Of a stretch of 38,506 nt of DNA, positions 24,401 through 33,400 are shown piece by piece. The notes beneath the pieces are model-generated. The model searched no databases. It worked only from the letters and a program-made list of their open reading frames with translations, and was not told the DNA's origin. Each line of letters opens with the position of its first letter. Position 1 is the first letter of the stretch. The stretch is taken from positions 1-38,506 of the forward strand of contig KZ538963.1 of assembly GCA_000934665.2 (NCBI GenBank), read 5' to 3'. Both the position numbers and the translations under genes were made by a program. The stretch comes from Catajapyx aquilonaris (lineage: Eukaryota).

Positions 24401-27400
24401 GGCAGAGACATCCATGTAGCAATTCTGGTTGGGAACGAAAAAAAAGTGCGTACAATTCTCAGATGTTAGTGCCACCCCATCCCTACCCACCCCACAACAC
24501 AAATAATTCATCCGCCACTATATAGTACCTTTAAAAACATACATACGCGAGAAACCATTATATCAACGGCCACACTCGAATACGGGATGACCTACATTAC
24601 ACACGCGAGTCAAAGAAATGTCCTTACATTTGGCCCCATTTTTTGACATTAAAAAATTGCGCAATTAGAGTATCCGATTGAGGCACTAACAACCGGTGCG
24701 AAATGGAATGCAATTCATTATTTTTGTTTTTGCGCCAAATGGATGGACATTAGCGTGACTCGACCACAGGTTCATACATGCCATGCGGATTATTCAAATT
24801 AGTCAGGACTCGAATTTAGCTGGGCATCTGTCATAATTTTGCCAAAAAAAATTTTGAATATTTTGGACGGTACTTTTTTTTTTTTTTGGCCGGGTTGGAA
24901 ACATGTGACGCACATGAAGGAAACTTACTTGAAGGCGAAGGAAATGAGAGAGACAAAGACGACCAGCAGATCCAGCAGGTTGAAAGCCGAGCGGCAGAAG
25001 GCTCCTTTATGAAGCACGAATCCGTAAGAGATCACTTTGAAGCATATTTCAATAGTAAAGACGCTGGTAAAAAAGTAGTCGAAATAGTTGAGAACCTGCA
25101 ACGAATAATAGTCGTGTAGAATTAACTGGAAGTGAGTTCATTGGACAACTACACAACTTACGACATTCCTGGCTGACTTGGAGTCCAAAGGGTCTTCTGC
25201 TGCCAACATGGCCGACGATATAAGAATGCAAGCCAGAATAACATTACTGAAGTAGCTGTGGTTACAAAACCAGTGGCAAAATATCCGGAATCTGAAACCA
25301 GGATGGGCATTAGACATGCCGAAAGGAAGGCATATTCAACGTGACATTACAGGATAGACACCAAAGTGAGAAGATATTAATCTGGATCACATGTTTTGTT
25401 ACATGGGGGATGGCAGCACACACTCTACATGTTTAGAACTACAAAAAACGTCGCGCCCGTGCCATTCTCTTGCCCAAGAAACCGGGATTAAAGTGGCTGA
25501 AATTGTTGCCTTTTCGTAAATAATTGTTAACTGGCGTTAGACGTTGTTTGCAGGGGGGTTTGACGCTCAAGTTGCCGAAGAGAAAAACAATCAAACACCT
25601 CTGCCCAAAAACACGGATATTAATTCATGCTCTCTAACAGTTACTTTTCTCAACATGGCCGAACTCTGGGAACAACACACACATGTATACGGATGTTGCT
25701 GAGAAAAGCAGCAAAAAGGACAAACTGAATACAAAAGCACCAGTTTTGTGTGGCCCCAAAGTAAAAGCTATCTAACTACACAGCGTCACGATTGGTGAAT
25801 ATAAATGCAGCACATGTAAATAAAATAAAACCACAGCAGCAATCGCTTTGGTAAAATATTCACGCGTCACCTGTTGGTATGAGAGAAAACGAAGAAGGAA
25901 GAATATTTGGGGATAGGTTCCTGCTTCACAGGTGCGCTGATCTCGGACAAGCGCCTGGGACGCGCTTTCTTGCCCTCACCCCCATCGTCAATGTACTCCT
26001 CACCCTCTTCTGCCATGGTTTCAAAAAAAAAATGGACAACAGAAGAGAAAAAAAGGGGGGAGTTAGAGATGATATGCAAGGGTCGAAACGTACCTGTTTG
26101 TGTGAGAAAACACAAAGAAGCTGCTTCCTGCAGGCACAGCTTTCACTTTCTTTTTGACTGTTAGTTCCGATATTCTCTTTGGCCTTGCGCTCGGTTTTTT
26201 GACACTGGGCACCTCCTGCTCCTCAGGATATGCTTCCTCCTCTGGAAATTATTGTGTTAGGACGGGGGAAACAAGTTGGGGGCTTTTTTTACAGCCGAAT
26301 TCAACCTCAGAAATTATTTCCAAAATGGATTCTGAGGGGTTGCCCGTAGAAACAACCAAGCCAAGTCAAACCACATTGAATCAACACTTTCTCAAGTTAT
26401 TTTTAGTCGCTTTCCACTTTCTGCACTTGAACTACTAGTAGGTCAGTTAATTTTCTGTCGAACTAAAATTAGAAGAGAAAATTGCTCATTATGCAATCAA
26501 ACATTTTGCTTAATTTCTCTTCCAAAACTGAGAAACACTCTGAAAAATGATTATTTGGGTCAATTGTGAAAAAGTACCGAGAGTGATGCTTCAAGTGCAT
26601 GTCAAGTGAAAATGACTCAAAATAATTTAAAGTGTAGGTTGTGCTGACAGGTTTTCAGATTCTGCCTTAGTGTCGCTTCGGGCACATTTTTAGAAAATTG
26701 TGGCTACGTTCACTATTCAGAGAGAGAAAGAACTGCCGAGGGGAAGGAGTTAGAAATTGTTAAAAAGGCGATGAAGCTCTAATTATACTGGAGAAGTTGA
26801 ACCAAAAAAAAAGTATACCGGTAATTGAAAACATGATAATAGTTTGTTTACCTGGAAGCTCAGGCTCAGCTGGTAGAAACACAACAGAAAATTGTTGTTG
26901 TTTTTTCGTTGGAGAAATATAAAACCACAACTCTGCACCGTTCATAAGTTGGACGCCAACTTACCATAATTCTCATCGTATTCTTCGTCCATGTCCTCTT
27001 CGTATTCTCCTTCTTCGTCTTCCGGTTCCGCCTCTTCATATGGTGGCTCCTCATCTGGTGTCTCAATGGGGATCTTCGTCTCCTTCTCGTCTTCTCCTCT
27101 GTGAAATAAACTCATAGTTAGGTTTAACTTTTAGTTCGTTGGATTACTGTTAATTAAGGGTGACTTACCCAGCATTTTCTTCACCTTCAACGCCTTCTTG
27201 TGGTTCTCCTTCAGCTCCTTCTGCCTTTTCAGCGCCGCCTTCTCCTTCGCCAGGAGCCTGAAAAGGCAAAGGAATATCAATCACGCGGATGCCTTGTACT
27301 ATCTCGAGGGATTTTACTCACCTCGCCTTCTTCCTTCTCGACGGAACTAAGAGACTCGGCGTCTGCCAGGTTGTCAACAGCGATGGCCAAGAAGACGTTT

Positions 27401-30400: not shown

Positions 30401-33400
30401 TGAAACAAAAAAACAAGCTTGCATCGAATGTATTCTTTTTTTAAAAATTAGCTAGTTTTGTAATGATCAAAAAAGACACGCGAGGAAGAACAGGTGTCAA
30501 AAAAATAACCTTAACATCTGAACAATCGAAAAGTTGATTGGATGTTAAATAGGACCCAGGCCGCAAGCTCAAAAAAACATTCTATAGCAAGTTGGCAACA
30601 CACACAAACAACGCACATCAGTTGCTGTTATCAAGGGTGAAGGGGGTGAAAAAAGGGCCACTATTTTGACCAACACCACAGCAATATCCGCAATCCGGAG
30701 TGATCCATATTGGACCACACGCTATAGCACTGGATATAAAATTCACACGGTGAGAGTTGCAGCTCAGTGCTGTTCGGTATGCGATAAGCATGCAAGAGGA
30801 CACGAATGGCTGTCACATGCTGCCGAGGTGATGCAATAAACCAAGTGATGCATGACAAGTGCTCTCTCTCTCTCGCCGGTACAGGCAATGGGGTTGTAGT
30901 CAAAGAGTTGAAGAACCTCAGGAAAAAAAATTGAGCCTTGTTTACAGTTGCTTTCACTCATCGCCGGCTCATTTTGCGAATATTTCGGGCCATTTATTTA
31001 TTGCACTGTAACCAATGATATGACCTAAATGGTCCTTGATGGGTATATATTTTTCAAGAAGATCTACAACCCCATTCTAGAAAATTTTGGTGTCGCCTAG
31101 TCTCTTGTTTTTTGCACCTTGCTCCCATTTTGGTGATATCATTTTGACGGAGGCGTGCAGACGAGGTGAAAAACCAATTATACAGCGTAATAGACTAGGT
31201 TGCCAGAAACTCGACACGAAAAATGATTAATCGGATTCTTGTTACATTGCTGAAGTGTTTTTTTTTTTTTTTGCGGAGTAATTTTAGAAGGGTTAGTGTG
31301 TGTATGGGTGAACTACTCTCTCAGCACACAAGCCTGCAGATGCATCACAAGCCACTGGAATTTTCATTGGGGGTTTTTTTTTCAAGAGCAGGCACAAGCA
31401 ACTGCCTCTAGCACCTAGACTCACCCACTGAGGACACCAAGAATTAAGTTCATAACAAAAAATGCTCCAAGTATGACCATGGAAACGAAGTACACCCAGT
31501 AAACAGTACTCCCCATGGAATCTTCTATCTGTACAAGTACAAAATATTACTTTTACAACGTGAAACAAGGAAAGGAGTGTAGCAGCTATAGGGCACCAAA
31601 TATTACCATCCCCAAGCTTCTGTTGCTCTGTTTTTACACAAAATAATGGGGAGGACACATTGACCAGTACTTTTTAAAAAAAATTGACACTCATGCCTTT
31701 ACTGCCGAAGTTTTCCAGCTGGACCAACAAAAATACTGAGGACGAATTTGGGCGTCAAAATCACAAAACATGGAGGTGTGGGGAGAGTGATCGACAGCAA
31801 CATAATTTTTTTAAACAAAATTAGGGATTTCTTTCTCTAAAAAATATGTGGTGCAGAAGTGTCCTAACTTTCTCCTTGACGTCGACTGGTGGTGGTTGGA
31901 AATAATGGGCAGTAAACAGGCTGGAGTGCAAGAAATAAGAAGAGGCAGAAGATTGGGAATAAATATAGAGGCACAAATGATAAATTGCGTGCAAAAGCAT
32001 ATAACTACCAAATGAAGAGAAAAAGGAAAAAAAGAGTGCCTAATAGATGTGCGGCAGCATCTGAATATCATATCCACCTCACAAACGCCAACAAAATCAT
32101 GTACCACATGGAAGAGAAAAGCAACATAAGCAACCGCATTCCGCACCTAGTCAGTCCTGTAACAAAATAAGAAATAAAGAAAAAAGCACAGAGATCTGTC
32201 GTACACACGAGCTGACACAGTGTGTAACTGAAAAAATGCACGAGATAATATAATATCTGCCGGATAAGGACCGGGGAAGCTTGACACGATTAATTATAAA
32301 TTACGTGTAATATACCAGAGATATTTTTCTCCTGATTCAGGTTGTTACACTTACCCACTTAACACACCCAGAACAAGGTTTAGGACAAAAAATGACCCAA
32401 TGATGATGAGGGAAATGAAGTAGATCCACGGCCACTGATTACCCAAAGCATCATTCACCTAGAGACAAAGTACACAATGAAAGTAAACAAATCAGGCCAT
32501 GTTTCACCGTTGCTCTTTTTTAGCCCATAATGTGCGCCATTACCCAAAAGACGGTTCCCTAATGTCACCGAAGGGTAATTAGGAGTCGTTTCATAAAGTT
32601 CTAAGGGAGGGGGATGGCTTCTCCCGAACGCGTGCAATAAATAAGGGAATAGCTGGGATCACACTCGACTATTTTATGTGACTTGGAAGCTTGCCTCGGT
32701 ATATCACAAGATACGACTCCAGTTTATGGAATAAGAGCCCCCAAGCCTCCCCATGATTTTTCGTTTATGAGTGTCCCTCATGACCTTCCTTTTTTAATAT
32801 AAAAGGTCACCCTTGGAATAATAATTTTTGCCCATGGATTGGCTTTTTTTTATTATCGCGTCCTTGCTGACTTTGTGGGGTAAGCTAATCACATGACGAG
32901 TAGCCTGCGGATCCCACTTTGCATGTTCAAAAAATTACGTGGTTACCAGCAAATTACCCCTTTTCCTGTGCCCAAAGAAAAAAAGTATTCTGGAAAAAAA
33001 TGCAACATAGTTTTGACGCATGCAGTGCCAGCACGATCATCTTACAAACTAACGAGCATAATCCATGGTGACATTCGGTGTCTGTTTGGTGTCTTTTTTT
33101 TCTATCTGTTTTTGTAACATGATGCTGAGCCTCTAACAGTGGACACAAACAGCGGGACCTAATTATACCATGGACGCTTAGCCCACACTTGCGGAAAACT
33201 ACACTCCAGTTATACACGCTCGACAGAGTAACGTAATTGCGACGAAAAGACACTTACGGCGTACATCATGTCAGTCCATCCCTCGAGCGTAACGCACTGA
33301 AAGACAGTCAGCATGGCCAGGCCGAAATTATCAAAGTTTGTTATCCCAAAATTTGGCCCATCCCACACTGCTTGGCACGTGTATTCTGGGTATTCATCTT

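Follow-up and report, generated by a model that had tools for sequence, protein, structure and literature searches.

Mutually exclusive exons over IIS4-S5 are found in the insect para sodium channel (exons c and d), at the same position as one of the exon pairs described here. The closest published case among calcium channels is the invertebrate Cav3 gene, in which exons 12a and 12b, covering domain II from IIS5 to the pore-helix turret, are mutually exclusive (PMC9694082) and conserved as a pair across protostomes (PMC9741552). In Drosophila cacophony (Cav2), mutually exclusive pairs are present at IS4 and the I-II loop (PMC11828482, PMC12370356). In this study, a 38,506-nucleotide (nt) stretch of DNA (the window) was analysed. 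Most of one Cav1 (L-type) alpha-1 gene lies on its minus strand, with tandem copies of the IS6 exon, of the exon encoding the IIS4-S5 linker, IIS5 and turret (the IIS5 exon), and of the distal II-III linker exon. With a probability of about 0.7, the locus is read as an arthropod Cav1 gene, probably from a crustacean-grade pancrustacean, in which these three exons would be old tandem duplicates used mutually exclusively.

Like Cav3 exons 12a/12b, the IIS5 pair of the window alters the domain II turret. The Cav3 pair belongs to another channel family and changes the cysteine/lysine content and the Na/Ca preference, whereas both turrets in the window are without cysteines and the exon also spans the S4-S5 linker and the whole of IIS5, so that an effect on gating would be at least as likely as an effect on selectivity. 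With the choice of IIS5 copy, the turret, the outer pore helix and the S4-S5 coupling linker of domain II would be exchanged together, one turret being 3 residues shorter. The cacophony gene is similar to the window gene in being a single invertebrate channel gene diversified by several tandem exon pairs and not by paralogues, but it differs in the exons concerned and in the subfamily.

The Cav1 gene spans roughly 35650 (IS1) to 15424 (C-terminus) of the minus strand. Compared with the window by tblastn, a reference set of 168 Cav1 proteins matched IS1 through the C-terminus in colinear order, the top match being a damselfly isoform (P0125; 2822 bits, 64.5% identity, 2246 aligned positions). 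Identity was 59-65% for insects, springtail, Daphnia, barnacle and horseshoe crab, 54% for a crinoid and 52.5% for a nematode. The Pfam domain Ion_trans was found in both IIS5 copies (E 3.7e-14 and 1e-18), and in PDB searches with the IS6 copies, Cav1.1, Cav1.2 and Cav1.3 chains outscored Cav2 and Cav3 chains. In addition, the exon following the IIS5 pair carries the domain II selectivity-filter motif TGEDW, of a type (filter glutamate followed by aspartate) that marks calcium channels (PMC4436565). The last open reading frame (ORF) scored 23.9 bits against Pfam CAC1F_C, under the cut-off of 26.6, and showed 73% identity to the damselfly Cav1 C-terminus across 67 amino acids (aa). In the exon tree, the canonical IIS5 copy grouped with hexapods, branchiopods and barnacle (20-row group; Shimodaira-Hasegawa-like approximate likelihood ratio test, SH-aLRT, 92). 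An earlier reading made from the letters of this DNA without database searches (the sequence-only reading) had named it an L-type Ca2+ channel gene, which was borne out by the colinear tblastn matches, the Ion_trans domains and the Cav1 structures as nearest relatives.

The six exon copies and their neighbours are listed in Table 1. All six copies have an AG acceptor and a GT donor and are open in the frame dictated by the neighbouring exons; the two copies of each pair share one entry phase and one exit phase, and the copy lengths are never a multiple of three. When the flanking exons were joined via a single copy, an open Cav1-like reading was obtained in 6/6 cases, and when they were joined via both copies or none, a stop was met 0 to 45 codons past the wrong junction, also in 6/6 cases. 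One-of-two use is therefore forced by the frame, and the use of exactly one copy is the sole translatable option for each pair. Transcripts with both copies or neither would be expected to be degraded. The exon coordinates and lengths given by the sequence-only reading were exact to the base, and the open frames, GT-AG sites and matching phases it described were confirmed for every copy; its prediction that including both copies or neither breaks the frame also held, with an early stop in all six wrong combinations.

Table 1. Exons, introns and repeat arms of the three tandem exon pairs in the window, with a candidate microexon in the last row
Feature	Position	Strand	Length (nt)	Details	Basis or status
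Constitutive exon before IS6 pair	33258..33451	minus		IS5 to pore loop; ends phase 0	sequence, tblastn
IS6 exon copy 1	32355..32458	minus	104	class A (chelicerate/deuterostome-like)	
Intron between IS6 copies	31529..32354	minus	826		coordinates
IS6 exon copy 2	31425..31528	minus	104	class B (insect/branchiopod-like)	
Exon after IS6 pair	30137..30290	minus		beta-subunit binding region, I-II linker	start 30290 firm, 3' end provisional
Constitutive exon IIS3-S4	29396..29547	minus		ends KVT AG then GTAAGG; 2-nt overhang	
Inverted repeat arm 1	29302..29320	minus	19	intron upstream of IIS5 copy 1	
IIS5 exon copy 1 (IIS4-S5 linker/IIS5/turret)	28978..29179	minus	202	divergent	
Inverted repeat arm 2	28510..28528	minus	19	intron between IIS5 copies, 163 nt before copy 2 acceptor	
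IIS5 exon copy 2 (IIS4-S5 linker/IIS5/turret)	28137..28347	minus	211	canonical	
Exon after IIS5 pair	27498..27618	minus		ILTGEDWN, domain II pore loop, IIS6 start; starts phase 0	
Acidic II-III linker exon before linker pair	26965..27098	minus		ends with 1-nt overhang	
Distal II-III linker exon copy 1	26094..26241	minus	148		
Intron between linker copies	26010..26093	minus	84		
Distal II-III linker exon copy 2	25871..26009	minus	139		
Exon after linker pair	25162..25291	minus		IIIS1 start	
Candidate microexon, II-III linker	26852..26869	minus	18	AG/GT, in frame, would add AEPELP	read from sequence

A tblastx self-comparison of 15001-36500 on the minus strand yielded three neighbouring pairs (55% over 42 aa, 67% over 58 aa and 59% over 32 aa) and no fourth tandem pair. 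Pairs of the vertebrate type at IIIS2 and IVS3 were absent from this region, consistent with the earlier statement that these equivalents are single-copy, and so was the IIIS5 pair known from hymenopteran isoforms. Hymenopteran Cav1 isoforms (P0005/P0011, P0010/P0029, P0007/P0019 and others) exchange a 26-residue IIIS5 block, one form of which reads YVVKCVIVAIK.

Exclusive use in vivo, use by tissue, independent choice at the three sites, the figure of eight isoforms and a split of tasks between muscle and neuron are predictions. The three choices may instead be coupled as tissue-specific sets, so that a few isoforms would dominate and not 8 free combinations. The window offers nothing in favour of independent choice, but the clusters are separated by 2 to 3 kilobases and no intronic element common to them was seen; coupling is regarded as quite possible, with the balance tilted slightly against it.

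The copies of each pair were compared to estimate their age and constraint. Amino-acid identity over aligned columns was 18/34 for IS6, 47/70 for IIS5 and 21/48 for the linker, and nucleotide identity within aligned codons was 48-63%. The proportions of synonymous (pS) and replacement (pN) differences were 0.56 and 0.32 between the IS6 copies, 0.80 and 0.24 between the IIS5 copies, and 0.79 and 0.44 between the linker copies. Synonymous sites are at or near saturation and replacement change is limited in all three pairs, indicating that the duplications are old and that both copies have been constrained. Protein-coding constraint was kept by both copies of each pair through most of a long history.

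For IS6, two types were distinguished among the 168 Cav1 proteins: class A was carried by 9, class B by 156, both by 0 and neither by 3. Class A was present in chelicerates, a crinoid, a nematode, one barnacle record and two other records, and class B in all hexapods, Daphnia, Artemia and a second barnacle record. The window has one copy of each class (Table 1), and the A/B split was recovered with SH-aLRT 98. The two barnacle records (P0003, class B; P0014, class A) differ at the IS6 block alone and have identical flanks, and therefore at least one other crustacean has both types. Judged by these records, the IS6 pair is not new for arthropods.

In vertebrates, exons 8a/8 of CACNA1C and CACNA1D are likewise an IS6 exon of 104 nt, and they share the frame logic of the window pair, since both or neither shifts the frame (PMC3060452); double-included and double-skipped 8a/8 products have been observed and are predicted decay targets (PMC3060452). 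Window copy 1 had its highest scores (about 50 bits) with the structures of Cav1.1 and Cav1.2, and copy 2 with the Cav1.3 structure 7UHF, which has the other vertebrate IS6 type (35 vs 30-31 bits). Copy 1 is clearly exon-8-like, whereas copy 2 leans towards the other type by only about 4 bits, and a stretch of 34 residues is too short to settle the matter. These scores give a hint of deep orthology between the window IS6 pair and vertebrate 8a/8; the human and fly Cav1 events are listed as 'different region, convergent' in a supplementary table of PMC9741552. The choice of IS6 copy would exchange the outer part and the body of the domain I inner pore helix, with the LGVLSG gate motif retained. 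The vertebrate exon 8a/8 choice is regulated by PTB. By analogy with exon 8/8a, IS6 exclusion in the window gene would depend on frame-shift surveillance plus trans-acting factors.

For the distal II-III linker, beetle RefSeq isoforms exchange the corresponding block (Diorhabda P0107/P0101 vs P0097; Atheta P0067 vs P0079), and the exchanged block ends FF[IV]FS..N directly ahead of IIIS1, as the window block does. Tandem linker copies colinear with those of the window were also observed in two metagenome contigs, one branchiopod-like (L025) and one insect-like (L028). In these beetle records, the linker pair is already annotated in the form of alternative isoforms. In D. melanogaster Ca-alpha1D, exons 15 and 16 are used mutually exclusively (PMC4174434) and are candidate counterparts of the window linker pair. 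The choice of linker copy would exchange the last ~47 residues of the II-III loop, with a basic-x-x-S site and the FFVFSHTN entry into IIIS1 retained. The best branch-site-like motif in the intron between the copies is a CTCTAAC about 31 nt from the copy 1 donor, followed by a long pyrimidine run, and such a short intron with a far-upstream branch-like site may block double splicing sterically.

For IIS5, copy 2 showed 86-93% identity to insect Cav1, 93% being the maximum against any protein searched. In the copy alignment, copy 1 retains the Cav1-invariant residues, and its helix changes are hydrophobic to hydrophobic. When metagenome contigs were scanned with copy 1, 51 loci were obtained, 3 of which (L021, L038 and L042) have tandem IIS5 exons; many of the other loci are too short to show a second IIS5 exon. 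The six copies of these three contigs have the same boundaries as in the window (AG, one base, [YH]W...Q, then GT), lengths of 1 modulo 3 and open frames. From the I-II linker to IIS5, L021 runs colinear with the window, with flanking exons at 81-96% identity, and the order is the same, with the divergent copy upstream and the canonical copy downstream. An extra IIS5 copy common to L038 and L042 showed 89% DNA identity and dN/dS (the ratio of replacement to synonymous substitution rates) of 0.11, and the 400 nt of intron on each side of it gave no alignment. The sequence-only reading had left it to be checked whether a duplicate copy evolves neutrally in related species; in the L038/L042 lineage, which is not that of the window, the extra copy proved non-neutral by this ratio, which points to strong purifying selection. 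In the insect-like L028, the IIS3-S4 and IIS5 coding parts are contiguous without an intron, which fits the lack of the IIS5 pair in insects.

The tandem IIS5 exons lie at L038:1101-1319 and 1943-2146 and at L042:1392-1592 and 3502-3720. L038 and L042, two related arthropod-like contigs, overlap in one copy type, which suggests a three-exon IIS5 cluster in their lineage with very divergent, long-turret and canonical-like members. In the window, a weak IIS5-like similarity was observed between the IIS5 copies at 28395-28535 on the minus strand (tblastn E 0.002 with L021 copy 1). This stretch, which may be a decayed third IIS5 copy, shares sequence with arm 2 of the inverted repeat listed in Table 1. 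The proteins P0121 and P0001 were considered as carriers of both IIS5 copies and rejected, since whole blocks are repeated, including an identical IS6. In both gene models, IS6 and IIS5 are present twice in identical form, and the models are probably mis-assembled or fused; P0121 bears the label of a contaminant of a sturgeon assembly.

In the freely accessible literature, no Cav1 IIS4-S5/IIS5 exon pair and no invertebrate Cav1 IS6 pair was found described. By comparison with the proteins, the IIS5 pair is the new part, unannotated in every protein searched. The novelty proposed for the whole set was therefore only partly upheld: it fell for the IS6 and linker pairs, which have counterparts in other arthropods, and stood for the IIS5 pair, since none of the proteins searched carries the copy 1 type. 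The finding is one new instance (IIS5) and two known instances of a well-known device of voltage-gated channels.

The IIS5 pair is accompanied by an inverted repeat, 19 nt long with 1 mismatch, whose arms lie on either side of copy 1 (Table 1). The pattern occurs twice in the window where 0.01 occurrences would be expected, and 0/100 shuffles attained two; the duplex was calculated at -23.7 kcal/mol, and a competing local pairing close to the acceptor of copy 1 at -10.9. Complementarity between introns was further scored without gaps against 200 shuffles in 11 intron-pair tests; the score here was matched by 1/200 shuffles, and those of control intron pairs by 46/200 and 89/200. Inverted repeats surrounding the IS6 and linker pairs were at chance level in the shuffle test. 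Pairing of the two arms would place copy 1 in a loop and move copy 2 close to the upstream exon, favouring copy 2, and the inverted repeat could in this way control the IIS5 choice. The corresponding layout in L042 is confounded by low complexity.

A wider evolutionary reading takes the three pairs together as the fullest surviving form of an ancestral Cav1 repertoire. The IS6 A/B split would then be the same event as vertebrate 8/8a and bilaterian in age, with insects having kept only B and chelicerates only A, and the IIS5 exon would be an old arthropod module missed by annotation and set by intronic pairing that loops out the upstream copy. This reading is speculative and rather unlikely.

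Several observations weigh against old, mutually exclusive duplicates in this gene. The pairs are known in this species from genomic DNA alone. Sister grouping of the window copies was not rejected for IIS5 (approximately unbiased test, p-AU 0.58), for the linker (p-AU 0.585; the tree, built on the last 34 residues, gave no resolution and fits a shared origin of the insect and window pairs as well as repeated duplication) or, less clearly, for IS6, where forcing the copies as sisters was 14.7 log-likelihood units worse (p-AU 0.10). The divergent IIS5 copies of the window, L021 and L042 grouped together in the best tree, but weakly (62/84) and with long-branch attraction flagged, so that their orthology is weakly supported. 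As for the mechanisms, the inverted repeat is one nominal hit in 11 intron-pair tests, and among the relatives L038 has the layout at a nominal level (7/200) and L021 lacks it (176/200); the steric exclusion suggested at the linker pair comes from a motif reading.

The remaining points concern IIS5 copy 1, which may have lost its function recently. Its end branch in the exon tree is 0.86 long, some 12 times the median of 0.07. No copy-1-like protein was found among proteins of 119-2000 aa (1619/1648 candidates matched, best identity 69%) or of 36-118 aa (107/108 matched, 70% at full coverage and 72% at partial coverage), and only 3/275 stored proteins favoured copy 1 over copy 2, by 4 points, all of them fragments of a more distant channel. 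Copy 1 could accordingly be a decaying or silent relic that is never spliced in, leaving only the IS6 and linker pairs at work, and besides the long branch and the want of any annotated or assembled protein resembling it, the weak IIS5-like stretch between the copies (E 0.002) allows that decayed copies may exist at the locus. Against this, the 67 codons of copy 1 are open and both its splice sites intact despite a pS of 0.80 against a pN of 0.24, the invariant residues and the hydrophobic character of the helix are kept, and extra IIS5 copies are intact in other arthropod-like contigs, one of them at dN/dS 0.11. A relic is therefore considered unlikely, and mutually exclusive use of both IIS5 copies is preferred.

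The duplicates might also be mainly regulatory, double inclusion giving a stop-containing transcript that lowers channel output. Double inclusion does produce a stop within 0 to 45 codons, and double-included and double-skipped products of vertebrate 8a/8 have been observed and are predicted to be decay targets (PMC3060452). However, a poison exon needs no conserved protein, yet pN is well under pS in all three pairs, and both the IS6 and the linker types are present in annotated proteins of other species, so that a mainly regulatory role is very improbable. That the duplicates are an assembly artefact, made of haplotypes or collapsed paralogues stitched in tandem, has next to no likelihood, since the only gap in the window (15 N) is distant, and the copies are 48-63% identical in nucleotides, have their own introns and recur in the same layout in independent contigs.

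Other features were also observed in the window. An 87-nt intron at 27411-27497 on the minus strand, inside the IIS6 coding part a short way past the IIS5 pair, shows signals of the minor class (U12-type): its 5' end GTATCCTT is the only RTATCCTT match in the window, and a TCCCTTAAC box lies 12 nt ahead of the 3' CAG. A U12-like branch box ACCTTAAC is present at 35651-35680, minus strand, and precedes the IS1 exon acceptor by about 12 nt; the 5' splice site of the intron before this exon was not found in the window. The intron preceding IS1 is often of the AT-AC class (PMC3634016), and the box before IS1 fits that statement.

Downstream of the channel gene, a gene for a TOE1-like CAF1-family ribonuclease was found at 3965-5149 on the minus strand (Pfam CAF1, E 4e-48, at 3965-4573). 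It shows at best 51-59% identity to any protein, its best named relatives (51-55%) being from sea spider, porcelain crab, centipede, sea urchin and molluscs. An acidic ORF at 11467-11793 on the plus strand has a weak FAM167 match (E 0.004, under the Pfam cut-off) and could belong, as an exon, to another gene on the other strand. The assembly gap of 15 N lies at 9243-9257.

Invertebrates have one Cav1 gene and vertebrates have four, and alternative exons are therefore the obvious route to muscle-type and neuron-type channels from the single invertebrate gene. Other arthropods already display two of the three switches, and the IIS5 switch recurs intact in several arthropod-like genomes and is constrained in the one lineage tested. 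The IIS5 pair shows that the channel gene models of crustacean-grade arthropods are incomplete. The IS6 pair, located at the 104-nt exon of vertebrate 8a/8, reopens the question of whether this medically important pair predates the vertebrates. If it is expressed, the IIS5 module would be a natural experiment on gating, auxiliary-subunit binding or toxin binding in an L-type channel.

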